A stretch of DNA of 64,000 bases from Kiritimatiellia bacterium (GTDB lineage: Bacteria; Verrucomicrobiota; Kiritimatiellia; JAAZAB01), in NCBI GenBank assembly GCA_040767085.1, contig JAXGPF010000009.1, positions 2,307-66,306 of the forward strand, in the 5' to 3' direction. This document shows positions 2,149-55,502 of this stretch, in pieces. Below the pieces are notes generated by a model. It ran no database searches and had not been told where the DNA came from. It saw only the letters and a list, made by a program, of their open reading frames with translations. The position numbers and the translations under genes were made by a program. Within the stretch, counting starts at the first letter, position 1. Every line of letters starts with the position of its first letter.

Positions 2149-2637
2149 TCAAGCCGGCGGGCGCGGCACATCCCGGGCGGCCGCCGGCAGAATAATTCTG
2201 AACTTGGCCCCTTTGCCGGATTCGGTGGCGACGCAGATATCGCCGCCGTGGTTGCGGACGATTCCCAAGACCGCCGCCAGACCGAGCCCGCGCCCCATGA
2301 ACTTGGTAGTGTAAAAAGGCTCAAACAGATGCGGCAAGCCATCCTGGCCAATACCGCACCCGTCATCCTGTACGATTAATTCGGCGTAGCGGCCGGCGGG
2401 CAAGGTGTGTTTTTGACAATACCGGGATGGCGCATAGCCGGGCTCGATATCCATGCCGCGCACGGACACTCCGATGACGCCATGCTTGTTCTGCATCGCC
2501 TCAACGGCATTGGTGATCAAATTCACCACCACCTGCCGCAACTGCGCCAGGTCGCCTTCGACGCAGGGCGTATCATCGGCCAGGTCAAACCGCAGGTCGG
2601 CATGATGCCCGGCAAGCGTTTTCAGCAACTGCAGCAT
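2149..2637 (-). CDS. histidine kinase HATPase_c domain segment (3' part of the same interrupted HK gene)
   Basis: N/G1/G2 boxes (VVNLITNAVEAM ... DDGCGI ... GRGLGLAAV). Same reading frame as ORF 2668..4920, separated only by the TAA codon and 10 sense codons. Confidence 0.65.
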   Translation of the reverse strand: MLQLLKTLAGHHADLRFDLADDTPCVEGDLAQLRQVVVNLITNAVEAMQNKHGVIGVSVRGMDIEPGYAPSRYCQKHTLPAGRYAELIVQDDGCGIGQDGLPHLFEPFYTTKFMGRGLGLAAVLGIVRNHGGDICVATESGKGAKFRIILPAAARDVPRPPA

Positions 2638-2667
2638 TTCGCCAATGAGCCGCGGCAGGTTGACCGG

Positions 2668-4920
2668 TTACACCATGTACTTCCCCTTGCCCGCATACGC
2701 CAGGAGTTGCGCGGTCAATTCCGCCGCGCGGCGGCAGGCGGAGCGGATGTCCTGCAAATAGGCAACCGGCGGGGCGCCAGGGGGCATTTTCAGCAGTGCC
2801 AGTTCAACGTTGCCCTGGATGCCCATCAGCAGATTGTTGAAGTCGTGGGCGATGCCGCCGGCCAGCAGGCCGATGCTTTCCATTTTTTGAATTTCGCTCA
2901 TCCGCGCTTCAAAACGCTCGCGTTCGGCGGCGGTTTTTTTCTGCTCGGTAATATCCTGCAGCGCCGAGCGGATGCCCTGCATCCGGCCCTGTTCATCCAG
3001 CAGGGCATAGGACTTGACCAGCATCGGCACATGGACGCCGCCGCGCCGGACGAATGTCCATTCGAAGGAAGCGTCCGGAACGGCGCCGGAAACCAGCTGG
3101 CGCTCAAGCGCCGGCCGGGCTGCCTCCTGCTCCAGAATAAACTCCCAGATCGGCCGGCCGACCATCTCCGCCGCCGTGTAGCCCAGCATCTTCAGTTCCG
3201 TGGCGTTGACATGCGTCAGGCGGCCGGCCCGGTCCATCTCGTGGTAACCCACCGGCGCATTGTCGAACAGATGCCGGTAGCGGGCTTCGCTCTGCCGGAC
3301 TGCCTGTTCGGCTTGCAGGCGGCCGATGACATTGCCCACCTGGTGGATCATCAACTCGACCGTGTTGCGGTCATGCTCGGGAATTTCCGTCAGCGCACGC
3401 GAGGCAAGGTTGCAGCAACCGACCAGGCGGTCGCTATGCTTGATCGGCAGCAAGGCGAGCGCGCGCAAGTTTTCAGCGCGCGCCGCGGCCGCAAAGGCGG
3501 GGTGCAGATCATCGCTCAGCATGTAAATCGGCCGGCCGGCGGCGAAAAGCTGCCATTGTTCCATGTCCGGCGAGATCCGCTTGACGGCGCGGACGAATTC
3601 CGGCGATAAACCGTGCGCGGCTGTCAAAATCAACGATCGGCCGGAGCCGTTGCACAGATAAATGCCGCCGCAATCCATACCGGTGATCCGCAGGGCGGCA
3701 TTCAAAAAAAGTTTCAAGGCTTCCGCGGCGGAGCCGGCCGCGGCCAGTTCCAGTCCCAGGTCGCGCTGGATGCGCATGGCATTTTCCACGCGCTTGCGCC
3801 CGGTTAAATCCACGTTCAGTTCCGCGACCACCCATTCGCCCTCGGGCGTCCGGTACGGCACGGTCGTCACCTGTACCGGGCGGTTATTCTCCCGCACCAT
3901 CACTTCCTCGGTGACGGCCTTGGTTTTGGTGGCCAGGGCGCGGATGATGCCACAGCCGGAGCAGGGCGACTGGCGCCCCATGAAATATTCATAGCACTTG
4001 CGCCCGTCGGTTGGGCCGTAAAATTCCTGCCAGCCGGAATCCACGTAACGCAGGTTGAACTGTGCGTCAATAATGTCAACATGCGTGCCGGTCTCCCGCA
4101 GGACGAACTCCAACTGCTTGTGCAGGTCCTCGATTTCACGCCGGGCAAGTTCGCGGTCGGTGACGTCGCGCAGCATGACCACCAGTCCCTGCGATTGCAG
4201 CGGGGCATCCCCCAGCGCCGAAAGCGATATTTCCACGGGAATCCGCCGGTTGCCGCGCGCCTGCAAGGTGCAATCGCTGATGGCGCGCGCCAGCGATAGT
4301 TGCCCGCCCGCGCAGGCGGCCAGTAAATCCAGCGGCGCCGGCGCGCGAGCGGATTGGATTTGCAGCACCTCGCCCAGCGCGCGGCCCCGCGCCTCCTCGA
4401 CCGTCCAACCCGACATCCGTTCCGCCATGCGGTTCATGTATTCAATTCTGCCGGCGGCGTCGGCGGTCACCACCCCCTCCCCCAGGTTGCGGAGGGTAAC
4501 GGCCAGCAAGGCTTCATTGCGGCGCAGGCGTTCGTCCAAGGCATGCTTGTACAGCGCCATTTCCAAGGCGGCGCGCAATTCATGATCGTCCGCAGGTTTG
4601 CGGATAAATCCGAACGGCGCAGTGTGCTTGGCGCGGTCCACGGTCTGTTCGTTGGAATAGGCGGTCAGGTAAATCACCGGCAGGGCAAAGCGGGCGCGGA
4701 TATTTTCGGCGACTTGGATGCCGTCCAGCCGGCCTTGCAGCAAGACATCCATCAACACCAGATCCGGATGGCTGCGTTCGATTTCCGGCAACACCTCGTC
4801 GCCGTCAGCGAGCGGTCCAGCCACCTCGTACCCCATGCGCTCCAGGCGCAGCTTGAGGTCGTACGCCAGAATCTGCTCGTCTTCCACGATCATGATCCGC
4901 GGACGTTGTTTATTCATCAT
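2668..4920 (-). CDS. hybrid sensor histidine kinase/response regulator, N-terminal segment (REC-PAS-GAF-PAS-HisKA), terminated by in-frame TAA
   Basis: N-terminal receiver domain (IMIVEDEQILAYDL...LVLMDVLLQG). PAS/GAF blocks. HisKA H-box (IAHDFNNLLMGIQG). The ORF stops at TAA 2668..2670, where an HK catalytic domain would be expected to follow. Confidence 0.7.
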   Translation of the reverse strand: MMNKQRPRIMIVEDEQILAYDLKLRLERMGYEVAGPLADGDEVLPEIERSHPDLVLMDVLLQGRLDGIQVAENIRARFALPVIYLTAYSNEQTVDRAKHTAPFGFIRKPADDHELRAALEMALYKHALDERLRRNEALLAVTLRNLGEGVVTADAAGRIEYMNRMAERMSGWTVEEARGRALGEVLQIQSARAPAPLDLLAACAGGQLSLARAISDCTLQARGNRRIPVEISLSALGDAPLQSQGLVVMLRDVTDRELARREIEDLHKQLEFVLRETGTHVDIIDAQFNLRYVDSGWQEFYGPTDGRKCYEYFMGRQSPCSGCGIIRALATKTKAVTEEVMVRENNRPVQVTTVPYRTPEGEWVVAELNVDLTGRKRVENAMRIQRDLGLELAAAGSAAEALKLFLNAALRITGMDCGGIYLCNGSGRSLILTAAHGLSPEFVRAVKRISPDMEQWQLFAAGRPIYMLSDDLHPAFAAAARAENLRALALLPIKHSDRLVGCCNLASRALTEIPEHDRNTVELMIHQVGNVIGRLQAEQAVRQSEARYRHLFDNAPVGYHEMDRAGRLTHVNATELKMLGYTAAEMVGRPIWEFILEQEAARPALERQLVSGAVPDASFEWTFVRRGGVHVPMLVKSYALLDEQGRMQGIRSALQDITEQKKTAAERERFEARMSEIQKMESIGLLAGGIAHDFNNLLMGIQGNVELALLKMPPGAPPVAYLQDIRSACRRAAELTAQLLAYAGKGKYMV

Positions 4921-4941: not shown

Positions 4942-5733
4942 TTAACAGGGGCGGCCCGATAGCGCAAGGAATATATTCGCGGGAACGTCAGACGCGTGCC
5001 GGGCGGGACGCGCCGGCGCCTCCGTCCCGCGCGTTATGGCCCCGGCGCGCCGGACCGCCTGCCGGGCCAGGATTGTCAGCGGATCCACCAGCGGCAGTCC
5101 GGCGCAGTCGCGGCGCAGAACCACGGAAATTTCCGTGCAGCCCGCGACAATCAGTTCAGCGCCGGCGCGGCGCAGCGCTTCGCCGGCTGCGCGCAGTTGG
5201 GCGGCCGGCAGGCGGCACCCGCCGGCTTTAACGCCGCGCGGACCGTAAATCGCCTCCATGACCAGCCGCTGCTGGTCGGCGGCGGCCGGCGCCAGCACCC
5301 GGCGCCGGCAGCGCCGGAAAGCCTGCTGGTAAATCCGCGTCCGCAGGGTGCCGGTCGTGGCCAAGAGCCCTACCCGCCGGACGCCGGGATAATGTTCCGC
5401 CACGTAGGCGGCCGCCGCCGCCGGCATATCGAGCACCGGCACGCGCACGGCGCGGCGGATGGCCGGCAGGTAATAATGCGCCGTGTTGCAGGGAATCACG
5501 ATGAAATCCGCGCCCGCGGCTGCCAGGCGGCGGGCGGCCCGGCGCAGGGCCGGCGCCGGAGACGGACCGCGCCCAAGAATGGCCGCCGTCCGGTCGGGAA
5601 TGGAAGGATCGTTGAAAATAATTACCGGGACATGTTCCTGGTCGGCCCCGGCGCACGTGGAGCGGATAATGCGCCGGAACAATTCCGCCGTGGCTTCCGG
5701 GCCGACGCCGCCTAGGATGCCGATGGTTTGCAT
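4942..5733 (-). CDS. aspartate/glutamate racemase family protein
   Basis: Motifs MQTIGILGGVGPEAT, PCNTAHYY and GCTE typical of Asp/Glu racemases. Internal ATG at 5733 chosen as start; the ORF extends to 5961. Confidence 0.6.
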   Translation of the reverse strand: MQTIGILGGVGPEATAELFRRIIRSTCAGADQEHVPVIIFNDPSIPDRTAAILGRGPSPAPALRRAARRLAAAGADFIVIPCNTAHYYLPAIRRAVRVPVLDMPAAAAAYVAEHYPGVRRVGLLATTGTLRTRIYQQAFRRCRRRVLAPAAADQQRLVMEAIYGPRGVKAGGCRLPAAQLRAAGEALRRAGAELIVAGCTEISVVLRRDCAGLPLVDPLTILARQAVRRAGAITRGTEAPARPARHASDVPANIFLALSGRPC

Positions 5734-5752
5734 GGGCGCGGTGGGACTGGCT

Positions 5753-6397
5753 TCAATCGGGGTTGACGCTGGTATAAACAAAATCGCGGGGGATGCCGAG
5801 GCGTTCGCGCAAGGCCGGCATGCTGCGCCCGACTTCGGCGTCAAGCTGCTCGAAATAATTTCCGCCGGCGGCGTCCATATCCACGAAAAACGGGCCGAAC
5901 CGCTCCACCTCGAACACCCAGGTGGCTTCGGTCTTGCCCAATTCCTCCAGGAAATACACACCGGCGACGCGCTTGACCTGGGAGACTAATTGGTTGCCGC
6001 AGAGACCGATTTTGGTCAGGTGCACACCGCCCACTTCCCGGAGGGCATCGGCCGTGCCGCGGCCCATGGTCGTCTTCCCGATCAAAACATGCAATTGCAG
6101 ACGGCGGATCAAGCCCGGGCTGTAACGTTCAAAACGAATGCTGGAAGTCGGTTCGATGCTGACCACTTCCCATCCGCCGCCTGCCTGGCGCATCACCGGG
6201 CCGACATGGAAGAAAGTGTTGACCGCCGCAAAGTCAATCGGCGGCAGGATGTTTTCGGTCATGGCGCGGATATGCAGCCGGCTGCGTCCCGTGAAGACCA
6301 GCCCGCTGAGGGTCACCATGTCGCCCAGGCGCAACTGGCGGGCCCGATCCGAAGTCAAAGGCAATTGCAAATCAGGAATATCAGATACGGGGGTCAT
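5753..6397 (-). CDS. class I fumarate hydratase / L(+)-tartrate dehydratase beta subunit (C-terminal catalytic domain type)
   Basis: Translation resembles the Fumerase_C / TtdB family. Start ATG at 6397 overlaps the stop of the upstream alpha subunit by 4 nt (ATGA). Confidence 0.65.
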   Translation of the reverse strand: MTPVSDIPDLQLPLTSDRARQLRLGDMVTLSGLVFTGRSRLHIRAMTENILPPIDFAAVNTFFHVGPVMRQAGGGWEVVSIEPTSSIRFERYSPGLIRRLQLHVLIGKTTMGRGTADALREVGGVHLTKIGLCGNQLVSQVKRVAGVYFLEELGKTEATWVFEVERFGPFFVDMDAAGGNYFEQLDAEVGRSMPALRERLGIPRDFVYTSVNPD

Positions 6398-7296
6398 GCG
6401 AAATCTCCGGAATAATCCGCGCGGCCGTCGCCGGCCAGTACCGCTTTCCAGCGCCGTCCCACCATGCATTGGGCGTTGACCGCCACCGGCAAGGCGGCGG
6501 TGTGCGTGACCGCCGCCGCCGCGTGGAGGCCCATGACCGCGTTGACGCCGCGGACGCCCATGGGCCCGAGCCCCAGGTTGCGCGCCGCGGCCAGCAGTTC
6601 GCTTTCCAGGGCGGCCAGACCCGGGTCCGGGTTGCGCGAACCCAGCGGACGCAGCACCGCTGCTTCCTTGGCCAGGCGCAGGCAGAGGTCCGCCGTGCCG
6701 CCCAGGCCTACGCCAACGATAGCCGGCGGGCAGATTTTCCCCGCGTAACAGCTTTCGCGGATGGCGTCCAGGACAAATTTCACGATGCCTTCACGGCCGT
6801 CGGAAGGATAGAGCATCCGGTAAAAGGTGCCAAAAATTTCCGAGCCGCCGCCCTTGGGCGCGGCCACGATTTCCAGGCCGTCGCCGTCGCCGGCGAACCG
6901 CAGTTCCACCTTGGGCATACCAGGCCCGACATTATCGCCGGGATTGGCGCGCGTCAGGGGATTCACCATGGTCGGCCGCAAAAAATTATCCGCCGTGGCC
7001 CGGCGGGTGGCGGCAGCCGCGGCCGGCCACAGCGCGCCGAAGCCGCCCTGGATCGCCGTCCGGCTGCCGGCGCTCACGAAAAAGAGGGGAAAACCCGTGT
7101 CGGCGCAGACCAGGCCCCGGCCGGACTCCGCCAGGCGGGCGTTTTCCAGGCTGATTTCCAGGTGGCGCTGCGCCAGCGGTTCGCGTTCTTCCGCCAGGGC
7201 GGCCGCCAATGCCCGCTGGACGTCCGGCGGCAGGCGGGCGGCTGCCAGGCGCATGGCTTCGTACATGGCGTTTTCAATTTGAACTTGTGTGATCAT
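6394..7296 (-). CDS. class I fumarate hydratase alpha subunit (Fe-S hydro-lyase N-terminal domain type)
   Basis: 300-aa ORF resembling the FumA-N / TtdA family. Translationally coupled to the beta subunit gene. Confidence 0.65.
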   Translation of the reverse strand: MITQVQIENAMYEAMRLAAARLPPDVQRALAAALAEEREPLAQRHLEISLENARLAESGRGLVCADTGFPLFFVSAGSRTAIQGGFGALWPAAAAATRRATADNFLRPTMVNPLTRANPGDNVGPGMPKVELRFAGDGDGLEIVAAPKGGGSEIFGTFYRMLYPSDGREGIVKFVLDAIRESCYAGKICPPAIVGVGLGGTADLCLRLAKEAAVLRPLGSRNPDPGLAALESELLAAARNLGLGPMGVRGVNAVMGLHAAAAVTHTAALPVAVNAQCMVGRRWKAVLAGDGRADYSGDFA

Positions 7297-7437
7297 AAAA
7301 TATCCCGCGGAGCAATGACATCAAATTAAAATACAATACCTGCCGGCGGATTGCAACGCAAATTTTCAGCCGAACTTGCGGAATCCTGCACGGTGAATCC
7401 TGCTTGCCGCCATCCAGCCGATGTTTTATACTCCGGG

Positions 7438-7493: not shown

Positions 7494-8765
7494 ATGCATA
7501 AAGGCAAGGAAACCAAACCCCATATCGGCATCTTCGGACGCCGCAACACCGGCAAAAGTTCAATCATCAACGCCCTGACGGGCCAGGATATCGCCATCGT
7601 TTCCCCGCAAGCGGGCACGACGACGGACCCGGTTAAAAAATCCATGGAGATTTTCGGCGTCGGCCCGGCCGTGATCATTGACACGGCCGGACTGGATGAC
7701 ACGGGCGAACTCGGCCGGCAGCGGGTACGGAAAACCCGGGAAGTCATCCCGACCGTTGACGCGGCCATTGTGGTCCTGGCGGAGAACCAATTCGGACAGG
7801 AGGAAGAAAACCTGCTGGATGAACTGTATGAAAACGGGGTGCCCTTTCTTTTCGTTTGCAACAAAACCGACCTGGCGCCCGCGGATACCGCGCTGCAAAC
7901 GGCGCTCCGGAACCGATTCCACCGGCCGGTCATTGACTTCAGCGCCGTGCGCCCGACCAACCTGGAAGATCTGATCCAGGCTATCCGCGCCACCATCCCG
8001 GAAACCGCATACCTCAAACCATCGCTGTTCGGCGGCTTGCTGCATGGCGGCGATATTGTCATGCTGATCACGCCGATCGACACGGAAGCCCCGGAAGGGC
8101 GCCTCATCCTCCCCCAGGTGCAGGCCATCCGGGATATACTGGACAATCAATGCGTCGCCATAGTCCTGAAGGAAACAGAGGCGGAAGCGTTCCTCCGGAC
8201 TACCGGCGTCAAGCCGCGCCTGGCGGTATGCGACAGTTCGATTTTCCGGCAAACCGGCGCCATTGTGCCGCCGGACATCCCGCTGACGGGCTTCAGCATC
8301 CTGCTCGCCCATTGCAAGGGCGAATTTGATAGTTACTTGAAGGGCACCCCCGCCCTGGCACGGCTGCAGGACAACGACCGGGTGCTGATCCTGGAATCCT
8401 GCACCCACCATGTGGTGTGCGATGATATCGGCCGCGTCAAAATACCGCGGTGGATGCGCAGTTTCAGCGGAAAAAACCTGCGCTTCGACACTGTGGCGGG
8501 CCTGAACAAGCTGGACCGGCCGATTGCCGACTACGCGCTGGTGGTGCAATGCGGCGGCTGCATGATCACCAGGAAACAGCTGGTGAACCGCTTGAAGCCC
8601 GCCATTGACCAGGGCATTCCGGTCACCAATTACGGCATGGCCATTGCCTGGATGCAAGGAGTGTACCAGCGTGCGATTGCGCCTTTTATTAGCGTAGCAC
8701 CGGCTCAAGCAACTGCGCCGCCGGACAAGCCGGCCGCCAGCAGGCGCGCGATGGCTTCGGGATAG
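7494..8765 (+). CDS. hydF: [FeFe]-hydrogenase maturation GTPase HydF
   Basis: N-terminal GTPase motifs (IGIFGRRNTGKSSIINAL; AGTTTDPV; DTAGLDD; CNKTDL). C-terminal Cys/His cluster (CTHHVVCDD ... QCGGC) in the position of the HydF FeS-binding motif. Confidence 0.7.
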   Translation: MHKGKETKPHIGIFGRRNTGKSSIINALTGQDIAIVSPQAGTTTDPVKKSMEIFGVGPAVIIDTAGLDDTGELGRQRVRKTREVIPTVDAAIVVLAENQFGQEEENLLDELYENGVPFLFVCNKTDLAPADTALQTALRNRFHRPVIDFSAVRPTNLEDLIQAIRATIPETAYLKPSLFGGLLHGGDIVMLITPIDTEAPEGRLILPQVQAIRDILDNQCVAIVLKETEAEAFLRTTGVKPRLAVCDSSIFRQTGAIVPPDIPLTGFSILLAHCKGEFDSYLKGTPALARLQDNDRVLILESCTHHVVCDDIGRVKIPRWMRSFSGKNLRFDTVAGLNKLDRPIADYALVVQCGGCMITRKQLVNRLKPAIDQGIPVTNYGMAIAWMQGVYQRAIAPFISVAPAQATAPPDKPAASRRAMASG

Positions 8766-9328
8766 GCCTGGTGTTCCTGTTCCTGGATGCGGGCATGCAG
8801 CGAGTCCGGTGTATCGTCCGGCCGCACCGGCACCGCGCGCTGGAGGATGATCCGGCCGGTGTCCACCCCGGCATCCACGAAATGCACCGTGCAGCCGGTC
8901 ACCTGCACGCCGTATTCCAGGGCCTGGCGCCAGGCGGCCAAGCCCGGGAAAGACGGCAGCAGCGAAGGATGGATATTAATAATGCGCCCGGGATAGGCCT
9001 GCAGCAAGGCCGGCTTGATGATGCGCATGAAGCCGGCCAGCGCCACCAGTTCCACCGCGTGTGCCCGGAGCAATTCAATCACCCGGTTTTCCGCGGCGCC
9101 TTCCAGCTTGGTTTTAAAGGGCGCGGGATCGACGTAAAACGCCGGGATGCCAGCGCGGCGCGCGCGGTCCAGGATCAAGGCGTCCGGCACATCGGAAATG
9201 ACGCAGGCCATCCGGGCCGGCAGGCGTCCGGCGGCGATGGCGTCGGCAAGCGCCTGGAAATTGCTTCCCCGCCCCGACCCTAAAACGCCCAGGGCGGTCT
9301 GTTTGTTTGCGGTCCTGGTTGGTGGCAT
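8705..9328 (-). CDS. purN: phosphoribosylglycinamide formyltransferase
   Basis: GVLGSGRGSNF and NIHPSLLPSFPG motifs of GAR transformylase. Internal ATG at 9328 chosen as start. Confidence 0.8.
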   Translation of the reverse strand: MPPTRTANKQTALGVLGSGRGSNFQALADAIAAGRLPARMACVISDVPDALILDRARRAGIPAFYVDPAPFKTKLEGAAENRVIELLRAHAVELVALAGFMRIIKPALLQAYPGRIINIHPSLLPSFPGLAAWRQALEYGVQVTGCTVHFVDAGVDTGRIILQRAVPVRPDDTPDSLHARIQEQEHQAYPEAIARLLAAGLSGGAVA

Positions 9329-9512
9329 GCGGGCATAATAGCAGGATGGGCCGGCGCATCGCAAGCATATCCCGCTGCCCGCGGCATGTTTTTAGGATAG
9401 CATCAGGCTGCGTCATGCGCGTAAAATACGGCGCCGACCCTCAACAGCTTCAGCGCAGCGGGGCGTGCGGCGGCGAAAATCCGGATTGTAACTTGCGGAT
9501 GAATTTCATACA

Positions 9513-11954
9513 ATGCATCCGCAAACCCGCTTCACGGTCTTGAGCAGGCGCCCGGCGGGATACATCATGCAAAGCACAAGCCTATATCATTCCATTCTGG
9601 ATGCCATGCCGGAGATGGTGTACATCTGCGACGCGCATAACCGCCTGGAATACATCAATCCCGCCATGGCCCGCCGGCTGCAGCGCGACGCGGCCGGCGA
9701 ACTTTGCCACCAGGCTATTTACCAGCGCGAACAGCCCTGTCAATGGTGCCCCCGCGCCCGGCCGGCGCCGGACGGCAACAGACCATGCGAAACCACGCGC
9801 ACCATGGACGGCCGCACTTTCCGCATCGCATGCACGCCCATCTCACACGAAAACCGCCCGGCGTCCTACCTGTTCATCATGCGGGATATCACGGACAGCC
9901 GGCAGGCGGAACAGGCGCTGCAGGAAAGCGAAGCCCGCTACAAGCGGCTGGTGGCATCGGTCACGGATTACATTTACTCCGTCAAGATCAAGGATGGCAA
10001 AGTCGCTTCCACCCTGCATGGCGAAGGATGCATCGCCGTCACCGGTTACTCCACCGCGGATTACGAGCAAGACCCGGATTTGTGGTTCAAGATGGTGCAC
10101 GAAGATGACCGCGCCAAGGTGCTGGATCAGGCCCGCCGCCTGCTGGCGGGAGAAACCGTGCCGCCGCTGGAACACCGCCTGCTCCATAAGAACGGCAAAA
10201 TCTGCTGGGTGCGCAATACGGCCGTGGTCCACCGCGACAGCCGCAACCAGGTGGTCGCCTACGACGGCCTGGTCTCCAACATCACCGAACGCAAACTGGC
10301 CGAAGAACAGCTGAACGAACACGCCCGTAAACTGGAAATCATCAACCGCATCATCATGGCCGTCAACAAGGCCTCCACGCTGGCCAGCACCCTGGAGGAG
10401 GCGCTGCACTCGGCGCTGGAATTGATGCAGTTCCGCGGCGGCGGCATCTACCTGGTGAATGAATCCGCCGGCACGGCGGAAATGCGCTGTGTCAACGGCT
10501 TTCCGGCTGATTTCATCACGGCCATGGCGCGCCTGGACTTGCGCGACAACCGCTATGCCGGCCTGTTCCATGACGGGCGGGCGGCATTCGACGGCAATTG
10601 CCGCCTGACGCAGCCGGAATTCGCCCGGCATTGGAACATCGCCGCTCTGGCGCGCCTGCCGCTCATTTCCCAGGATAAAATCATCGGGCTGCTGCTGCTG
10701 GCCGATCCCGCCCCGCATAACTTCACCCCGGCCGAGCAGGACATCCTGCTGTCCATCGCCCGGCAAATCGGCACGGCCCTGGCCAAAACCAGCTCCGAAC
10801 TGGCGCTGCGGGAGAGCGAAAACCGTTACCGCACCATCACGGAACAATCGCTGGTCGGCGTGCAGATCATCAAGGATGGCCGGCTGATTTTCGTCAATGA
10901 AGGCTGGACCGCCATCACCGGCTACACCCGCCGCGACCTGGAGCATTGGAGCGACCGCGACTTCCTCCGGATCATCCACCCGGAAGACCAGCAGTTTTTC
11001 ATGAAGCACATGCAGGATTGCCAGGACGCCGACAACGGCGGGAGCAAGCCCTGCGATTACCGGTTTATCGCGCAATCCGGCGCAACGAAGTGGGTGGCCC
11101 TGCATGTCCGCCGGGTCAACTTCGCCGACGGCGCCGCGGTCATGGCCATTATCGTGGACATTACCAACCGCAAGCTCGCCGAGCAGGCGCTGGCCGCGGC
11201 CCACCAGCGCCTGCAGGCCCGCGAAGAGCAGTTGCGGGCGATCAACCAGGAGCTCAGCGCCGCCAACGCGCAATTGAAGGCCAGCGAGACCAAACTGATG
11301 GCCGCCAACCGCGACAAGGAAATCCTGCTGAAAGAAATCCACCATCGCGTCAAAAACAATCTGCAGGTGGTCTCCAGCCTGCTGAAGCTGCAATTGGCGC
11401 ACATCCAGGACGAGCAGGCCCGGCAACTTCTCGGTGAATGCCAGAACCGGATCAAGTCCATCGCGATCGTGCATGAAAAACTGTACCAGGCGCCCAACCT
11501 GGCGGAAGTCAATGTCGGCGAATACATTCAAAGCCTGACCAAGCACCTTTTTCGCGCCTTCCTGGTTGATCCGGAATCCGTCAGCGTCAAAATCGAAGCC
11601 GGCGAGGTCGTTCTGGGGATCGACAAGGCCATTCCCTGCAGCCTGCTGATCAACGAACTGGTGTCCAATTCCCTCAAATATGCCTTCGCCCGCTGCCATC
11701 GCGGTGAAATTTCAATCAAGTTGCAGGCCGCCCCCGGCGCCCGGTACCTGCTGGAAGTGGCCGACAGCGGCTGCGGCATTCCCGCGCACGTGGATATCCG
11801 CAACACCGCCACGCTGGGCATGCAGCTGGTGATGACCTTCGTGGAACAATTGAACGGCACCATTACCCTTGATAAAAGCCGCGGGACGCGTTTTATCATT
11901 TCCTTCACCGACGAGAAGAAAGCCGCGGCTCTCGCGCCGCCGGCCAAGCCATGA
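9513..11954 (+). CDS. multi-PAS/GAF sensor histidine kinase (HisKA_2/HWE-type H-box)
   Basis: Several PAS blocks. H-box HHRVKNNLQVVSSLLKLQ. HATPase G-boxes (DSGCGIP, GTLGMQLV). An alternative start at 9567 (MQSTSLY) is possible. Confidence 0.75.
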   Translation: MHPQTRFTVLSRRPAGYIMQSTSLYHSILDAMPEMVYICDAHNRLEYINPAMARRLQRDAAGELCHQAIYQREQPCQWCPRARPAPDGNRPCETTRTMDGRTFRIACTPISHENRPASYLFIMRDITDSRQAEQALQESEARYKRLVASVTDYIYSVKIKDGKVASTLHGEGCIAVTGYSTADYEQDPDLWFKMVHEDDRAKVLDQARRLLAGETVPPLEHRLLHKNGKICWVRNTAVVHRDSRNQVVAYDGLVSNITERKLAEEQLNEHARKLEIINRIIMAVNKASTLASTLEEALHSALELMQFRGGGIYLVNESAGTAEMRCVNGFPADFITAMARLDLRDNRYAGLFHDGRAAFDGNCRLTQPEFARHWNIAALARLPLISQDKIIGLLLLADPAPHNFTPAEQDILLSIARQIGTALAKTSSELALRESENRYRTITEQSLVGVQIIKDGRLIFVNEGWTAITGYTRRDLEHWSDRDFLRIIHPEDQQFFMKHMQDCQDADNGGSKPCDYRFIAQSGATKWVALHVRRVNFADGAAVMAIIVDITNRKLAEQALAAAHQRLQAREEQLRAINQELSAANAQLKASETKLMAANRDKEILLKEIHHRVKNNLQVVSSLLKLQLAHIQDEQARQLLGECQNRIKSIAIVHEKLYQAPNLAEVNVGEYIQSLTKHLFRAFLVDPESVSVKIEAGEVVLGIDKAIPCSLLINELVSNSLKYAFARCHRGEISIKLQAAPGARYLLEVADSGCGIPAHVDIRNTATLGMQLVMTFVEQLNGTITLDKSRGTRFIISFTDEKKAAALAPPAKP

Positions 11955-12985
11955 AACGCGCCCACCGCCGCCGCAAGCAGAAATTAATGCGCTTGCTCGC
12001 CGCCCGCGCGCCCGACACGTCCGCCCGGCTTTACCGCGCCGCTGACGCCGTGCGCCGCTTGAACATGGGCAACGCGGTTTACCTGCGCGGCATCGTTGAA
12101 TTTTCCAATTGCTGCTCCAATCGCTGCTGGTACTGCGGCTTGCGCGCGGATAACCGGCGGGTGCGTCGATACCGCATGCCGCCCGATGAGATACTGACGG
12201 CCTGCCGCCAACTGGCTGCCGCCGGGATGACCACGGTGGTGCTGCAATCCGGCGAGGCCCGGACCTGCGGCGACCGCGACCTGGGCCGGCTGATCGAACG
12301 GATCAAGGCGGAAACGGCCCTGGCGGTCACCGTGTCGGTCGGCAACCGTCCCCGCGATGTTTACGCCTATTGGCGCGCCTGCGGTATGGACCGTTACTTC
12401 CTGCGGTTTGAGACCAGTCATCCGCGTTTATTCGCGCGCCTGCATCCGGACTGCACCCTGGCGGAACGTCTGGCGTGCCTGCGCAGCCTGCAAGCGCTGG
12501 GCGTGCAGACCGGCAGCGGCTTCATGATCGGGCTTCCCGGCGAAACGCGCTCCATCCTGGCCGACAATATCCTGCTCTGCCGCGAACTGGACCTGGACAT
12601 GATCGGCATCGGCCCTTTCATCCCCCACCCCGACACGCCGCTGGGCCGGGCGCGGAACGTTTACCGGGCCGATCCGGAAATTTTCTTCCGGGCGCTGGCC
12701 GCTTTGCGGATATTCAACCCGCGCGCCCATATCCCCGCTACGACCGCCTTTGACGCTGTTTTCCCGGGCGCGGGCCGCGACCTCGCCCTGCAGCGCGGCG
12801 CCAACGTTTTCATGCCCAACAGCACGCCCGCCTCCTACCGCGGCGATTACCTGCTTTATCCCGGCAAGCCGGGCGTGGACAGCGACGGGGCCGCGGCGGC
12901 CCGCGACGTCCGGCGGCGCCTGCGGCGACTGGGGCGCCCGCTGGGCCGGGGTCCCGGCCATTCCCTCAAGCACAGGCCCCTTTAA
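11951..12985 (+). CDS. hydE: [FeFe]-hydrogenase maturase HydE (radical SAM, BioB-like)
   Basis: CX3CX2C (CSNRCWYC). BioB/HydE-like core. C-terminal block (GANVFMPNSTPASYRGDYLLYPGK ... LGRGPGHS) matching the HydE tail. ATG overlaps the HK stop by 4 nt. Confidence 0.75.
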   Translation: MKRAHRRRKQKLMRLLAARAPDTSARLYRAADAVRRLNMGNAVYLRGIVEFSNCCSNRCWYCGLRADNRRVRRYRMPPDEILTACRQLAAAGMTTVVLQSGEARTCGDRDLGRLIERIKAETALAVTVSVGNRPRDVYAYWRACGMDRYFLRFETSHPRLFARLHPDCTLAERLACLRSLQALGVQTGSGFMIGLPGETRSILADNILLCRELDLDMIGIGPFIPHPDTPLGRARNVYRADPEIFFRALAALRIFNPRAHIPATTAFDAVFPGAGRDLALQRGANVFMPNSTPASYRGDYLLYPGKPGVDSDGAAAARDVRRRLRRLGRPLGRGPGHSLKHRPL

Positions 12986-12989
12986 CACC

Positions 12990-15254
12990 ATGGATACCGC
13001 CATACCCCAGGCCAACCTCAGCCACGCGGACAAGGTCCGGGCCCTGCCGTGGTATTACACCTTTCATGCGTCCAACACGGTCTTCGTGCTGCTGACGATT
13101 TTCGGACCGGTTTTTCCCCTTTTCATGCATGCCATGGGATTGCGGAAAGCGCAAATCGGCGCCTTGCTGGCCATCCCGCATGTCTTTACCATTCTGGCTT
13201 TGTTGATTGCGGGGCTGGTCAGCCGGCGCGGGCCGAAGCGCATTTTCATTTCGATGACCATCGCGCGGGTGATCATCATCTCCGGCTTGCTGATCATCCC
13301 GCTGGCGCGCCGATGGCTGACGCCGCCGCAAATCTTCCTGGCACTGTCAACCATTATCGCCGGGTTTGCTTTTTGCCGGGCCGTGGCGGAAACGGGATAC
13401 CTGCCATGGGAAAAGCAGTTTATTCCCGATCGCAGCCGCGGCAAGGTCTATGCCATCAACGGCATCATCGCCGGCCTGACCGCCTTCGGCACATCGCTGG
13501 CTGCCTCCCTGGTTTTGCGGCGTTTTCACGGCATCGTCGGCTACCAATGGCTGATTCTGGCCGGCATCGCCTTCAGCCTGGTCTCGATCTGGTGCCTGCG
13601 GTTTATCCCCGGCGGCAGTCCGGCGCCGTCCGCCCTCCGCTCCCGTCCCATCCTGGAAAGCCTGATGATTCCGATGCGCGACTCCAATTTCCGGCGTTTC
13701 CTGCTGGTCAACGGCCTGTTTGTGCTGGCCTGCGGCGTCTTCCCTTTCCTGCCCTTGTACCTGCAATCTCAATTCGGGCTGCCGCCTGCCCGCATCATGA
13801 CGATGGACATGGCCCTGCGCGGGGGCATCCTGGCCGCCAGCCTGTTCTGGGGCTGGAGCGCCGATCGCTTCGGCGGCCGGCCGGTGGGCATTACCGGCAT
13901 CCTGATGGTGATGGTTTTTCCGCTGGCCTTGTGCCTGCTCCCTCCGCAGATTCAGCCGCTGGCACTGGTGCTGGGCGCCATTTACTGTTTTTACGGGATG
14001 GCAGTCCAGGGGTACCTGGTGGGATTGACCCGCTACCTCTACGCCGATGCCGTGCCGACGCAAGCCAGCGCCGGATACTTTGCCCTGCATTATTCCACCA
14101 GCGGCGTCTGCACGGCCATCGGCCCTTTAATCGCCGGGTACCTGCTGGATAGCTGCGCGCCGCTTAACCGGCAATGGGGCTGGTTCGCCATCACGCCTTA
14201 CACGCCGGTGCTGCTGGTTTCCACCGCGCTTTTCGCCGCCGCCGCCGCGTTCGGCCACCGGCTGCGCAGCGCCGCCGCCCTGCCCACGGGCAAATTTCTG
14301 TCGCTGCTGATCCAGGGCAATCCGCTGCTGGCGTTCGGCTCGATCGTACGCTATCAATTCGCCTGGAACGAAAACGAGCGCATCAGCACCACGGAACACA
14401 TGGGCCGGGCGAAAAACACCGCCAGCGCGGACGAATTGCTGGCATCGCTCCAGGACCCCAGTTTTAATGTGCGTTACGAAGCCATTCTGGCGATTGCCCG
14501 CCTGCCCGCCACGCCGCAATTGACCGATGCGCTGGTCGGCGTGCTGCGCAGCAAGGAGCCGGATTTGAGCGTGGCGGCGGGCTGGGCCTTAGGGCGGCTC
14601 GGCGATCGACGCGCCATCCCCGCCCTGCGGGAAACCCTGCAATCGGAATTTGCTCTGCTCCGGTCCCGGGCCGCCCGTTCGCTGGCCATCCTGGGAGACA
14701 GCGCCAGCGCCGCCGCGATGCTGGAAGCCTTGCGCCATGAACAGAATGACGCCATCCGCGTCGCCTACGCCACCGCCCTGGGCAGTCTTCGGGTCGAGGA
14801 CGCCTTGCCCGCGATTCTGGATTTGCTGGACCGGCTGCCAGCCGGACCGCTGCGCAACGAGGCGGCGCTGGCGGCGGCCCGGATCGTCGGTTGCGACAGC
14901 CGGTTCATCCGTCTCTGGCGCGCCGCCCGGCACGAGACCGGCGCTGCCGGCGCCGAAGCTTTGCGGCAGGCGGCGCCGTTGTTCGCCGGCCGCCGGGAGG
15001 GGCCGCCGGCGGCGCGCGCGGCCTGGCACACCGCCATTCAGGCCCTGCAGTCAGGCGACAGCGCCGGCGGCGCGCGCCATCTTGCATGGCTGCTTTCACT
15101 CATGGAAGCCCTGCCCGGCGGCGCGCTGGAACGCCAGGTCTGGGCGGCATGCCGGCAGCATCTGGAATCGGCCGGCAAGGGAGAACTGCGCCGGGAATAT
15201 CTGTTGCTGGCGCTCAGTCTGCTGCAAAAAAGCGCGCAAAGCGCCGATAATTAA
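12990..15254 (+). CDS. MFS transporter fused to a C-terminal HEAT-repeat (PBS lyase-like) domain
   Basis: About 12 predicted TM helices with MFS-like loop spacing (aa 1-470), followed by repeated HEAT-like units (VRYEAILAIARL..., LRSRAARSLAILGD, AIRVAYATALGSL...). ATG at 12990 lies 5 nt after the hydE stop. Confidence 0.6.
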   Translation: MDTAIPQANLSHADKVRALPWYYTFHASNTVFVLLTIFGPVFPLFMHAMGLRKAQIGALLAIPHVFTILALLIAGLVSRRGPKRIFISMTIARVIIISGLLIIPLARRWLTPPQIFLALSTIIAGFAFCRAVAETGYLPWEKQFIPDRSRGKVYAINGIIAGLTAFGTSLAASLVLRRFHGIVGYQWLILAGIAFSLVSIWCLRFIPGGSPAPSALRSRPILESLMIPMRDSNFRRFLLVNGLFVLACGVFPFLPLYLQSQFGLPPARIMTMDMALRGGILAASLFWGWSADRFGGRPVGITGILMVMVFPLALCLLPPQIQPLALVLGAIYCFYGMAVQGYLVGLTRYLYADAVPTQASAGYFALHYSTSGVCTAIGPLIAGYLLDSCAPLNRQWGWFAITPYTPVLLVSTALFAAAAAFGHRLRSAAALPTGKFLSLLIQGNPLLAFGSIVRYQFAWNENERISTTEHMGRAKNTASADELLASLQDPSFNVRYEAILAIARLPATPQLTDALVGVLRSKEPDLSVAAGWALGRLGDRRAIPALRETLQSEFALLRSRAARSLAILGDSASAAAMLEALRHEQNDAIRVAYATALGSLRVEDALPAILDLLDRLPAGPLRNEAALAAARIVGCDSRFIRLWRAARHETGAAGAEALRQAAPLFAGRREGPPAARAAWHTAIQALQSGDSAGGARHLAWLLSLMEALPGGALERQVWAACRQHLESAGKGELRREYLLLALSLLQKSAQSADN

Positions 15255-46100: not shown

Positions 46101-47009
46101 CTAAGCCGGCGCCGGAATTTCCGCCAGCGCCAGTTCCATGATCCGACGGCACAAATCCGCGAACGGCAGACCCGCGGCGGCCGCGGCCTTCGGCAGCAGG
46201 CTGGTTTCGGTAAAACCGGGAATGGTGTTCAATTCCAGCGCGAACAACGCGCCATCATCGCGCAGACGGAAATCCACCCGGCCGAACCCGCGTCCGCCTA
46301 AAACCTGAAACGTCCGGACGGCCAAATCCTGGCAGCGCCCTGCGGTTTCCTCCGGGAGGGGCGCGGGGGCGAGGTATTCCGTCACGCCCTGGGTATACTT
46401 GGCGCGGTAATCGTAGTTGCTGTCGGGCGCGCGGATTTCCACCACCGGCAATGCCTGGCCGCCCACAATCCCCACCGTCAACTCGCGCCCCGGAATGTAT
46501 TCCTCGACCACCACCGCGCCGTTATAAGCCATGGCGTCCGCCAGCGCGGCGTCCCATTCCGCTTCACGGAGCACCCGGTGCACACCGAAGCTCGATCCCT
46601 GGCGCGGCGGTTTAACCACAGCCGGCAAGGGCATCTGACGGCGTCCGCCGGGTTGCAGCACTTCGTATCCCGGCGTGGGGATGCCGTTGGACAGCATGGC
46701 TTGCTTGGAAAGTATTTTGTCGAAAGCCAGCCGGCTGGCTGCCGGCCCCGAGCCGGTGTAAGGCACCCCCAACACTTCCAGGCGTTCCTGCACGGCGCCA
46801 TCCTCGCCGAATTCACCGTGCAGCGCGATGAACGCCGCCTGCGCGTTTTCCGGCAGAACCAGTTCCGGTCCGGTGATATCAACTTCCTCGACCATGTAGC
46901 CAGCCTGGCGCAAACCGCGCGCCACAGCCGCGCCGGAACGCAGCGACACTTCGCGTTCCTTGGAAAAACCGCCCATTAAAACCGCAATTGTAGCACCCAT
47001 ATCAATCAC
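46101..47009 (-). CDS. ddl: D-alanine--D-alanine ligase
   Basis: ATP-grasp motifs (ALHGEFGEDGAVQ; GVPYTGSG; ELNTIPGFT). Confidence 0.85.
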   Translation of the reverse strand: MIDMGATIAVLMGGFSKEREVSLRSGAAVARGLRQAGYMVEEVDITGPELVLPENAQAAFIALHGEFGEDGAVQERLEVLGVPYTGSGPAASRLAFDKILSKQAMLSNGIPTPGYEVLQPGGRRQMPLPAVVKPPRQGSSFGVHRVLREAEWDAALADAMAYNGAVVVEEYIPGRELTVGIVGGQALPVVEIRAPDSNYDYRAKYTQGVTEYLAPAPLPEETAGRCQDLAVRTFQVLGGRGFGRVDFRLRDDGALFALELNTIPGFTETSLLPKAAAAAGLPFADLCRRIMELALAEIPAPA

Positions 47010-49380
47010 AATATACTATCTCGCGGACAAGCTCAATATCAAAACCGACCGACACTCTTTTTTTCATGATTTCGATCAGCGCCCGGATATCCGATGCCGT
47101 GGTTCCGGCCTCCGCCGTGATCACATTGGCGTGGGTTTCAGCCACCCGCGCGCCGCCGACCGCCAGGCTTTTGCAGCCGGCAGCCTCCAGCAGGCGGCCG
47201 GCATAATCGCCCGGCGGATTGCGGAACACCGAGCCGGCGGAGGCGCCCCAATGCATTTTGCCGCGGCGCGCTGCTATCTCCGCCAGGCGCCGGCGAATTT
47301 CCGCGGGCGCCGCCGGAACTGCCTGTAAAACCGCGCCAACCGCCACCCTTTGATCCAGGCCCCGGCAAGCGCGGTATCCGAATCCCAGTTCCGCCGCCGC
47401 CAGATCGCTGGCAACGCCGGTCCGGTCCAAACACAGAGCCGAGGTCACGCAGGTTCCGATGGCCGCGCCCCAGGCGCCGGCGTTCATGCGCAATGCGCCG
47501 CCCACCGTGCCGGGAATACCGTGTAAAAATTCCAGTCCGCCCAGGCCCTGTTCCGCGCACCAGGCGGTCAACTCCGCCAGCCGTACCCCGGCGCCCGCCT
47601 CCAACCGGTCCGGGCCCAGTCGGCGCAGTTGCCGGAATCCTTCGCCCGTCAGGCGCAGGACCAGCCCGCGCACTCCCAGATCACTGACCAGCACATTACT
47701 GCCGGCGCCCAGGCAGGTCACCGGCACCTGGCAGCGCGCGGCCCAGCGCAAGACGGCGGCGGCATCCGCCGGATCCCCCGCATCCACCAGCATGTCGGCC
47801 GGTCCGCCCACGCGCCAGGTAGTGCAGGCTGCCAACGATTGCCACGCCTGCCAGCGCGTGGCAGGACCCAATTGCAGCCGGACCAGTTCATCCCGCCACC
47901 CGGGAATCGGGTTCAAAGCCGTCCCCGTCCGCGCGGAATCCAGGGCCGCCGCCGCCCAATCCGCCAGGCGCGCCACATCGCCGGCGCCCGCCACCAGCAA
48001 ATCGTCGCCCGCCGCCAGCGTCCGCCGCAAATATTCCCGGATTTGCTCCATTTCGGCCGCCAGTACGCGCGGCGGCGCGACATTGGACCGGCGGAAAGCG
48101 GCGTACAAATCCCAGACCGTGCCGCCCGCGTCTGCCGTCTCCGATGCCGCGTAAACCGGCGCCAGCAGCAATTCATCCACGCCGGCAAATGCCCCCGGGA
48201 AAGCCTCCGCCAGCGCCCGGGTACGGGTATGACGGTGCGGTTGATACACCATTATACGCCGGCGGGCCGGACCGGCATCGCCGCCTGGATGCGGCAACCG
48301 GCCGAGCATGCCGACGGCGGCCGCGATTTCCGTGGGATGATGGGCGTAATCCGAAAACACCCGGATTGCGGCGGAAGCGTAAATTGTTTCGAACCGCCGG
48401 CGCACCGGCACAAAACCCGCCAGGGCGCGCGCTGCTCCCGCCGGCGCGCAACCCAGCGCCCGGGCGGCGGCGCAGGCGGCCAGGGCGTTCAAGGCGTTGT
48501 GGCGGCCCGCCACCGGCAGCGCCAATTCCATGTCCGGCGCATCCGGCCAGCGCACCCGCAGCCGGATGGACTGTCCGTCATCGCGTAAATCGACGCCGCA
48601 CACGGCGGCGCCGGGTGCAAAGCCATAACCAACCGCCCCGGGTATTCTGGCGCCCAGTTCCGCCGCCGCGGGGTCATCGGCGCAGTAAACCACGCGGCGG
48701 CGCGTACGCGCCAAAACCGCGGCAAAACATGCGCGCAATTCATCCAGACTGGCATAATGCTCGGCATGGTCAAATTCCACGTTAGTCAAGACCGTCACAT
48801 CGGGGGCATAGTCCGCGAGCGTCCCATCGCTTTCATCGGCCTCGGCAACGCAAAGCCGGGCGCCGTTGCCCCGGCCGGCCACACCGTCAAAGGCCGGGCA
48901 ATCGCCGCCGATGCACCAGGCCGGCGCCAGACCGCATTGCCGTAGAATCTGGGTCAGCATGGCCGCGGTGGTGGTTTTGCCGTGGGTGCCGCAAACCGCC
49001 GCGGCGGTCCGTCTCTTCAACCAGGCGGCCAACACCGCGCCGCGCTGGTAAACCGGCAGACCCGCCGCCGCCGCCGCGCGCAATTCCGGATGCGAGACCG
49101 GCACGGCGGTGCTGCGGATCAGCCAGTCTACGCCTGTCAAATGCTCCGCGGAGTGCCCCGTGAATACTTGCACGCCGCGCTCCGCCAGCCAACCGGCCAG
49201 CCGGCTGCCGCCGCGGGCGGCATCGCAGCCGCTGACTGCCCAACCGTCGCACCGCAACTGGTAAGCCAAGCCGGCCAGGCCGACGCCGCAGACCCCGAGA
49301 CAATGCACATGTCCGCCGGGGTGCGCCAGCAGGCGCGCCAGCGCGGCCTGCTCACCGTGCTGATGACTGCCTGGGTCCAT
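47002..49380 (-). CDS. murC/murB: fused UDP-N-acetylmuramate--L-alanine ligase / UDP-N-acetylenolpyruvoylglucosamine reductase (MurC-MurB)
   Basis: 792 aa. Residues 1-~470 carry Mur ligase motifs (VCGTHGKTTTA; DESDGT). Residues ~480-792 carry the MurB FAD-binding and substrate domains (TTWRVGGPAD...GAGSNVLVSD; MNAGAWGAAIG; SAGSVFRNP). Confidence 0.8.
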   Translation of the reverse strand: MDPGSHQHGEQAALARLLAHPGGHVHCLGVCGVGLAGLAYQLRCDGWAVSGCDAARGGSRLAGWLAERGVQVFTGHSAEHLTGVDWLIRSTAVPVSHPELRAAAAAGLPVYQRGAVLAAWLKRRTAAAVCGTHGKTTTAAMLTQILRQCGLAPAWCIGGDCPAFDGVAGRGNGARLCVAEADESDGTLADYAPDVTVLTNVEFDHAEHYASLDELRACFAAVLARTRRRVVYCADDPAAAELGARIPGAVGYGFAPGAAVCGVDLRDDGQSIRLRVRWPDAPDMELALPVAGRHNALNALAACAAARALGCAPAGAARALAGFVPVRRRFETIYASAAIRVFSDYAHHPTEIAAAVGMLGRLPHPGGDAGPARRRIMVYQPHRHTRTRALAEAFPGAFAGVDELLLAPVYAASETADAGGTVWDLYAAFRRSNVAPPRVLAAEMEQIREYLRRTLAAGDDLLVAGAGDVARLADWAAAALDSARTGTALNPIPGWRDELVRLQLGPATRWQAWQSLAACTTWRVGGPADMLVDAGDPADAAAVLRWAARCQVPVTCLGAGSNVLVSDLGVRGLVLRLTGEGFRQLRRLGPDRLEAGAGVRLAELTAWCAEQGLGGLEFLHGIPGTVGGALRMNAGAWGAAIGTCVTSALCLDRTGVASDLAAAELGFGYRACRGLDQRVAVGAVLQAVPAAPAEIRRRLAEIAARRGKMHWGASAGSVFRNPPGDYAGRLLEAAGCKSLAVGGARVAETHANVITAEAGTTASDIRALIEIMKKRVSVGFDIELVREIVYCD

Positions 49381-55410: not shown

Positions 55411-55502
55411 TGGCGGAGGGAGAGGGATTTGAACCCCCGGTGCCCTTGCGAGCACACATGATTTCGAGTCATGCGCATTCAACCGGACTCTGCCATCCCT
55501 CC
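55411..55502 (-). tRNA. tRNA-Ser (anticodon CGA) with long variable arm
   Basis: Reverse complement reads GGAGGGATGGCAGAGTCCGGTTGAATGCGCATGACTCGAAATCATGTGTGCTCGCAAGGGCACCGGGGGTTCAAATCCCTCTCCCTCCGCCA. It has a 7-bp acceptor stem, an anticodon stem CATGA/TCATG with loop CTCGAAA, a long extra arm, a T-arm GGTTCAAATCC and an encoded CCA. Confidence 0.75.

Follow-up and report, generated by a model that had tools for sequence, protein, structure and literature searches.

The 64,000-nt stretch of Kiritimatiellia DNA analyzed here (hereafter, the window) covers 64 kb of a 260-kb contig and carries, between positions 7494 and 15254, five genes that include those assigned to HydF and HydE, two maturases of the [FeFe]-hydrogenase H-cluster. 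The hydF gene (7494-8765, plus strand) encodes a 423-aa maturation GTPase and scaffold protein. It is followed by purN (8705-9364, minus strand), encoding glycinamide ribonucleotide (GAR) formyltransferase (TIGR00639, 228.7 bits against a cut-off of 150), by a gene for a multi-PAS sensor histidine kinase (longest open reading frame (ORF) 9513-11954, plus strand), by hydE (11951-12985, plus strand), encoding a 344-aa radical S-adenosylmethionine (SAM) maturase, and by a gene (12990-15254, plus strand) for a 754-aa protein in which a major facilitator superfamily (MFS) transporter is fused to a C-terminal HEAT-repeat domain (MFS::HEAT). All five genes had been placed at these positions in the initial annotation of the stretch, and our analysis recovered each of them there.

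As for their arrangement, hydF and purN are convergent and overlap at their 3' ends by 61 nt (8705-8765) within non-conserved tails, and purN is divergent from the kinase gene. hydF, which is preceded by a promoter-like site at 7404-7432, forms its own transcription unit, and it is separated by about 3.2 kb from hydE, which belongs to another. The TGA stop codon of the kinase gene overlaps the ATG of hydE as ATGA, in line with the overlap first described, and the ATG of the MFS::HEAT gene lies 4 nt after the TAA of hydE; the close succession of these two genes had thus been correctly noted. Such tight packing makes the co-transcription of the trio likely, as had been proposed, and hydE, the middle gene, is very probably co-transcribed and translationally coupled with both the upstream kinase gene and the downstream MFS::HEAT gene. 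The GC content of the window ranged from about 0.59 to 0.69 in 2-kb steps and was uniform, at about 0.61-0.67, over the region considered here. An Rfam scan of the window returned one tRNA only, and no riboswitch was found near hydF or the kinase gene.

The HydF protein scored 476.3 bits in TIGR03918, well above the equivalog cut-off of 325.55, and its Pfam domains comprised MMR_HSR1, HydF_dimer, and HydF_tetramer, with PF18128 and PF18133 both being matched. The GTPase motifs G1 (GRRNTGKS), G3 (DTAG), and G4 (NKTD) were readily identified, and the core of G1 (G15, N18, G20, K21, S22, and S23) was invariant across 45 aligned HydFs. The [4Fe-4S] cluster site was found as E301-x-C303-x-H305 ... 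Q352-C353-x-x-C356, where position 352, directly before C353, is occupied by Gln instead of His; Gln occurs at this position in 11 of the 45 aligned HydFs. In addition, the protein aligned over nearly its full length with the PDB chains 5LAD, 3QQ5, and 5KH0, with E-values from 3e-97 to 7e-92. Its C-terminal tail, which is the part that overlaps purN, is 14-18 aa longer than those of the sister proteins (405-409 aa). The closest named HydF, from a "Kiritimatiellia bacterium" (locus L090), was 86% identical, and two other Kiritimatiellia HydFs, at 72% and 76% identity (L092 and L093), are encoded by genes that an aspartate-ammonia-lyase-like (aspA-like) gene directly precedes or overlaps. Furthermore, the HydF of a Bacteroidales locus (L094), which is a member of a TM1266-hydG-hydF-hydE operon, was 71% identical to that of the window.

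The HydE protein scored 286 bits in TIGR03956 against the equivalog cut-off of 254.6, and the other radical SAM families gave much lower scores (PylB, 115; BioB, 87; HydG, 37 bits). It carries the CX3CX2C motif at residues 55-62 (C55-C59-C62), and its residues 14-336 aligned with the Thermotoga maritima HydE structures with an E-value of 1e-84. Its sequence was 62-67% identical to Syntrophorhabdus-type HydEs whose genes adjoin hydF, hydG, and group A hydA (e.g., L017, L022, and L024), and in these clusters one HydG (TIGR03955, 652-667 bits) and one HydA (group A6 model, 927 bits) were verified. With HydE as the query, scans of genome and metagenome collections did not yield any sequence above about 70% identity; neither collection includes the clade to which the window belongs. 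Because both proteins exceed their equivalog cut-offs, retain their motifs intact, match solved structures, and have relatives in canonical hyd clusters, HydF and HydE are, on the evidence of their sequences, true orthologous maturases, and the identifications made in the initial annotation thus hold for both.

Meanwhile, the nearest relatives of the two proteins were discordant, since HydF was 71% identical to its counterpart in the Bacteroidales locus L094 and 47% to that of the Syntrophorhabdaceae locus L017, and the corresponding values for HydE were 40% and 64%. This discordance suggests that the maturase set is a mosaic that would have been assembled by separate acquisitions, which fits maturases being exchangeable between lineages.

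Neither hydG nor hydA was detected in Pfam scans of 58 ORFs covering the window. The genes thus scanned were of the housekeeping type and included an Fe-S hydro-lyase pair, rnc, xerC-like and lpxL-like genes, ruvA, the gene for EF-G, and corA, as well as a division and cell wall (dcw) cluster with a MurC::MurB fusion, ftsA, ftsZ, a secretin gene, lpxA, fabZ, miaA, lspA, and ileS. Consistently, tblastn of the window with HydG, HydA, TM1266, and AspA queries revealed no such gene across the 64 kb, and the weak matches obtained were those of the HydG query to hydE, attributable to paralogy, and of the AspA query to argH. hydG, hydA, and TM1266 are therefore lacking over no less than 7 kb on the upstream side and 49 kb on the downstream side, and the two approaches agree with the earlier statement that the window holds no hydG or [FeFe]-hydrogenase gene. 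When a related HydG was used as the query, the 120 matches listed were all Syntrophorhabdus-type sequences of at least 71% identity located on other contigs. A 64-kb window without hydG and hydA, however, says little about a whole genome, and hydG and one or more hydA genes are expected to lie elsewhere in this one. In the lineage, Kiritimatiella glycovorans possesses two bifurcating Fe-only hydrogenases (PMC5148204), and among the fermentative mercury-methylating bins of Lake Mendota, including Kiritimatiellaeota, 24 carry H2-evolving hydrogenases, mostly [FeFe] group A (bioRxiv 10.1101/2020.04.01.018762).

To place this arrangement among other hyd loci, 159 other hydE loci were collected from 80 genome and 80 metagenome matches, 61 of which had at least 8 kb on both sides. 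Within 10 kb of hydE, hydF, hydG, and hydA were all present in 24 of these 61 full-flank loci, and no other hyd gene was present in 14. The closest hydE loci from the Planctomycetes-Verrucomicrobia-Chlamydiae (PVC) group (L013, L010, L031, L033, and L041) were solitary. In L010 and L042, the "HydG-like" ORFs close to hydE turned out to encode ThiH rather than HydG, and were counted as such in the survey. It has also been reported that no more than 56% of hydF-like genes are accompanied by a further hyd gene when 20 ORFs on either side are considered (PMC11736057). In view of this figure and the 14 solitary hydE loci, scattered hyd maturase genes are common. If the reading favored below is right, a location among housekeeping genes need not prevent a confident annotation of hydE and hydF.

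The sensor kinase encoded upstream of hydE is a cytoplasmic protein with PAS_4, PAS_3, GAF, PAS_9, HisKA_2 (4.5e-29), and HATPase_c (3.5e-11) domains and an H-box, EIHHRVKNN, at residues 607-615. When the gene was aligned with those of the sisters, the likely start codon was ATG 9567 rather than 9513, and a promoter-like site at 9486-9514 fits this position. The protein scored far below every NCBIfam equivalog cut-off. Its first PAS domain contains four cysteines, spaced as Cys65-x10-Cys76-x2-Cys79-x12-Cys92, which are conserved in the kinases of the sister loci L006 and L007 and could constitute a putative metal or Fe-S site. A similar motif, KCYEYF...PCPGC, was observed in the L006 orthologue of an unrelated neighboring kinase. 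No stand-alone receiver gene was found among the Pfam-scanned ORFs of the window and no response regulator adjoins the kinase; the only receiver (REC) domain of the window lies inside a separate hybrid kinase at 2668-4920. This hybrid kinase (2149-4920, minus strand) shows a REC-PAS-GAF-PAS-HisKA arrangement followed by HATPase_c, and a single TAA in frame at 2668-2670 divides it into two ORFs. These share one reading frame, and in L006 the orthologue is one undivided gene of 931 aa. A pseudogene, a sequencing error, or a split kinase may be at hand.

The protein encoded downstream of hydE matched MFS_1 (2e-28), HEAT_2 (PF13646, 2e-18), and HEAT_PBS (PF03130, 3e-11) in Pfam, so that the HEAT region proposed in the initial annotation was indeed detected by repeat profiles. 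It consists of a 12-transmembrane (TM) MFS part at residues of about 12-422, a disordered linker at 456-477, and an alpha-solenoid of the HEAT/PBS-lyase type that is about 280 aa long. An AlphaFold model built from a 23-sequence alignment (mean pLDDT, 85.8) displayed 12 long TM helices followed by an alpha-solenoid, the latter being presumed to be cytoplasmic from the canonical MFS topology. The HEAT region matched alphaRep/PBS-HEAT chains of the PDB with an E-value of 2e-34 and the CpcE-type lyase 5N3U with an E-value of 4e-5. In a Foldseek search, the model retrieved generic MFS proteins (YegT/NupG, sialin, SPNS2, VMAT2, MdfA, and SotB) at 13-18% identity and target TM-scores of 0.63-0.82, and no substrate can thus be inferred from the fold search.

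Homologues of the fusion protein, 23 in number, were found mostly in the PVC group, and its named relatives belong to Kiritimatiellota and Verrucomicrobiota, plus one metagenome-assembled genome of Caldilineae. At five more distant MFS::HEAT loci (36-43% identity), the neighbors were arfB-like (RF-1-domain), GDSL esterase, DUF386, and GH4 or GH42 genes, and no hyd gene was present; loci without hyd neighbors include L001, L004, L005, and L008. In two distant lineages, namely at L001 (2053-5681) and L004/L005 (9483-13171), the fusion gene has the same flanks, with a divergent RF-1-domain (arfB-like) gene upstream, a GDSL esterase gene downstream, and DUF386 and glycoside hydrolase genes nearby, and these shared flanks may hint at the real role of the transporter. 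Since other members of the family sit among glycan-utilization genes, its substrate appears more likely to be carbohydrate-related than hydrogenase-related, a weak indication. A possible parallel case, the 803-aa SSF transporter encoded downstream of hydE in L031, was rejected, as that protein has no HEAT-like tail.

Gene order was then compared across the relatives. The order kinase-hydE-MFS::HEAT was kept in the sister loci L006 (fusion protein 78% identical) and L007 (71%), and the fusion gene and hydF also occur together on a third sister contig, 28,164 bp in length, which bears both P0003 and P0149. The order hydF-purN-kinase recurred in L006 and in the Logan contig L089, an independent read assembly containing hydF, purN, and the start of the kinase gene, and the housekeeping flanks of the window were syntenic with those of L006. 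At L090, the locus of the 86% identical Kiritimatiellia HydF, hydF is followed 14 nt downstream and on the same strand by the Fe-S hydro-lyase pair (11232-12775); no kinase-hydE-MFS::HEAT block lies next to this hydF, and purN is located 7.6 kb away from it. None of the 159 other hydE loci contained an MFS::HEAT gene or a similar kinase. Because the trio was found in sisters only and was absent beside the L090 hydF, and because neither the distant fusion loci nor the 159 hydE loci provided a link, it is lineage-specific; the neighborhood has been repeatedly rearranged, and only a narrow clade has the trio. The co-occurrence of the MFS-HEAT fusion with hydE, for which a survey had been suggested, therefore did not extend beyond the close sisters to the five distant fusion loci or the 159 hydE loci. 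We also considered purN as a one-carbon link to how the dithiomethylamine (DTMA) ligand is made and rejected this idea, the gene being a housekeeping gene that runs convergently to hydF and in L090 is 7.6 kb away from it.

On balance, we consider it likely, judging from sequence and gene context, that hydF and hydE of the window are two ordinary maturase genes, functional in [FeFe]-hydrogenase assembly, from a bacterium of the Kiritimatiellia type (PVC), and that their kinase and MFS::HEAT neighbors reflect lineage-specific gene order. HydF would then serve as the GTPase scaffold that receives the [2Fe] precursor and HydE as the radical SAM enzyme acting on the Fe(Cys)(CO)2(CN) synthon that HydG makes, and both would act in standard H-cluster assembly together with the products of hydG and hydA, presumably encoded elsewhere. 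The trio, in turn, would represent a recent gene-order state of one lineage in a rearrangement-prone region rather than a conserved functional module. Apart from their adjacency in close relatives, there is nothing to connect the kinase or the transporter with the maturation of hydrogenase, and the regulated maturation or new accessory function envisaged in the initial annotation finds no pointer in the genomic context, given that the trio occurs only in close sisters and that the distant fusion loci lack a hyd link. Several observations weigh against the reading as ordinary maturase genes with lineage-specific neighbors, however. HydE exceeds its cut-off only modestly, hydG and hydA were not found in the 64 kb of the 260-kb contig that were covered, L006 shows the same ATGA overlap and 4-nt spacing, and the trio remains intact in L007 despite a different downstream flank. 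Such conservation in L006 and L007 is also expected of a selected operon.

These last points bear on the alternative that a genuine functional module is made up of the kinase, hydE, and MFS::HEAT, in which the Cys-rich PAS kinase would sense redox state, O2, or metal and thereby set the expression or activity of hydE, the transporter would supply a substrate or remove a by-product, and the HEAT domain would dock a maturation partner. The ATGA overlap between kinase and hydE, the start of the fusion gene only 4 nt after hydE, the persistence of the block in L006 and L007 even though the L007 flanks differ, and the conservation of the four first-PAS cysteines in all three kinases would all accord with such a module. 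HEAT repeats are protein-binding scaffolds, which would suit the docking role. Nevertheless, this conservation was seen only in close sisters (71-85% identity), for which shared ancestry suffices, whereas elsewhere the fusion family lacks hyd neighbors and no similar kinase or transporter accompanies the other hydE loci surveyed. Moreover, the presence of a similar Cys motif in an unrelated neighboring kinase indicates that the motif is not specific to the kinase of the trio, and no response regulator is adjacent. We therefore regard a functional module as unlikely. It appears quite improbable that hydE was captured into a Cys-rich-PAS kinase/MFS::HEAT operon to yield a lineage-specific accessory system, which would link the HydE step to a redox, O2, or metal signal and to the movement of a precursor or by-product across the membrane, with the HEAT solenoid acting as a membrane-anchored docking platform for a maturase.

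Two further explanations concern the maturase genes themselves. The lack of hydG and hydA in 64 kb, the solitary state of the closest PVC hydE loci, and the assumption of the authors of PMC11736057 that some hydF-like genes without hyd neighbors are "pseudo-HydF" might be taken to mean that the proteins resembling HydE and HydF are paralogues that were enlisted for a non-hydrogenase process in a genome devoid of hydG and hydA. Both proteins, however, pass the equivalog cut-offs with all motifs intact, their 64-71% identical relatives are encoded in canonical hyd clusters, aspA remains paired with hydF in the Kiritimatiellia relatives, and the lineage carries [FeFe]-hydrogenases (PMC5148204), all of which render recruitment of this kind very improbable. 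The juxtaposition could also, in principle, be a chimera of hyd genes from different organisms created in assembly or binning, which would explain why HydF is closer to Bacteroidales (71%) than to Syntrophorhabdaceae (47%) and HydE the reverse (40% and 64%). Yet the same order was observed in the independent assemblies L006, L007, and the 28,164-bp contig, the Logan read assembly independently spans hydF, purN, and the kinase start, the region has a uniform GC content (about 0.61-0.67), and the housekeeping flanks are syntenic with those of L006, so that the probability of a chimera can be taken as practically negligible.

On its upstream side, hydF is divergent from genes for a two-subunit Fe-S hydro-lyase of the class I fumarase/tartrate dehydratase type (5753-7296, minus strand), which gave subfamily matches to TIGR00722 and TIGR00723, the fumarate hydratase equivalog scores being below their cut-offs; the same divergent arrangement exists in L006. 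Next to the hydro-lyase genes comes a cysteate-racemase-like gene (4942-5961, minus strand), which scored 244.7 against the CuyB equivalog cut-off of 190. The pairing of aspA with hydF has been described as a hallmark by which hyd loci can be recognized (Pagnier et al., 2024, PMC11736057), and in L092 (2675-4126) and L093 (8452-10008) an aspA-like gene overlaps hydF. Kiritimatiellia hydF genes thus repeatedly adjoin those for fumarate- or aspartate-type enzymes (window 4942-7296, L090, L092, and L093). As regards other metabolic neighbors, hydE of the Lentisphaerae locus L010 (7926-15553) lies between genes for a Cys/Met-metabolism pyridoxal phosphate (PLP) enzyme and a PALP (cysteine-synthase-type) protein, with ThiH and ThiF nearby, and the same PLP and PALP pair was found 2.6 kb from hydF in the Kiritimatiellae locus L092 (7956-10236).

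Farther downstream in the window, a 792-aa ORF (47002-49380, minus strand) combines MurC-type Mur ligase domains with MurB (FAD_binding_4 and MurB_C) and represents the MurC::MurB fusion of the dcw cluster. Two LpxA-like acyltransferase genes (Hexapep and Acetyltransf_11; 54122-54895 and 57294-58112, minus strand) are located about 2.4 kb apart and lie around fabZ, a tRNA at 55414-55502, and a URO-D-like gene.

In comparison with the canonical hyd operons, exemplified by TM1266-hydG-hydF-hydE in the Bacteroidales locus L094 and hydA-hydG-x-hydF-hydE in the Verrucomicrobia loci L057, L058, and L081, the window contains the same HydF and HydE families, but it has hydF and hydE only, in separate units about 3.2 kb apart. 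Its HydF shares the GTPase, dimerization, and tetramerization domains and the ExCxH...CxxC site with the HydFs of Thermosipho melanesiensis (5LAD) and Thermotoga neapolitana (3QQ5) and with 5KH0, and differs from them in the Gln before CxxC, in the longer C-terminal tail, and in that no aspA, hydG, or hydE directly abuts its gene. With respect to the aspA-hydF association (PMC11736057), L092 and L093 share it, whereas the window, L006, and L090 have the two-subunit class I fumarase-type Fe-S hydro-lyase instead and the window lacks aspA, indicating that in Kiritimatiellia a class I Fe-S hydro-lyase sometimes takes the place of aspA beside hydF. The HydE protein resembles that of T. maritima (PDB 3CIW, 5FEP, and others; TIGR03956) in its near-full-length alignment, CX3CX2C motif, and equivalog score, while its closest relatives are of the Syntrophorhabdus, Verrucomicrobiota, or Lentisphaerae type and its gene is flanked by those of a sensor kinase and a transporter rather than placed inside a hyd operon. 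The kinase, for its part, has the HisKA_2 H-box (HHRVKN), the HATPase_c domain, and the multiple PAS/GAF inputs of HisKA_2/HWE-type PAS kinases of the LOV-HK and PhyK class, and is distinguished from this class by the conserved four-Cys motif in its first PAS domain and by the absence of the LOV motif NCRFL.

Although a literature search for MFS-HEAT fusions returned no relevant result, a precedent for the transporter-HEAT architecture, which the initial annotation had regarded as unusual, has been published, namely the widespread, as yet uncharacterized NTT-HEAT transporter fusions, which also occur in PVC bacteria (Chlamydiae) (Major, Embley and Williams, 2017, PMC5381601). Both kinds of protein consist of a 12-TM transporter with a C-terminal HEAT_2/HEAT domain that is labeled PBS lyase in databases. 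On the other hand, the transporter domain of the window protein is MFS_1 (PF07690) and not TLC/NTT, a Pfam scan having yielded only MFS_1 and MFS_1_like and no TLC match at E ≤ 0.01; it has no cyclic nucleotide-binding domain (cNBD) partner, and its family, with the 23 homologues found, is small. By this comparison, MFS::HEAT is best described as an analogue, not a member, of the NTT-HEAT family, and with it the transporter-HEAT architecture, described until now for NTTs, extends to a second class of transporters.

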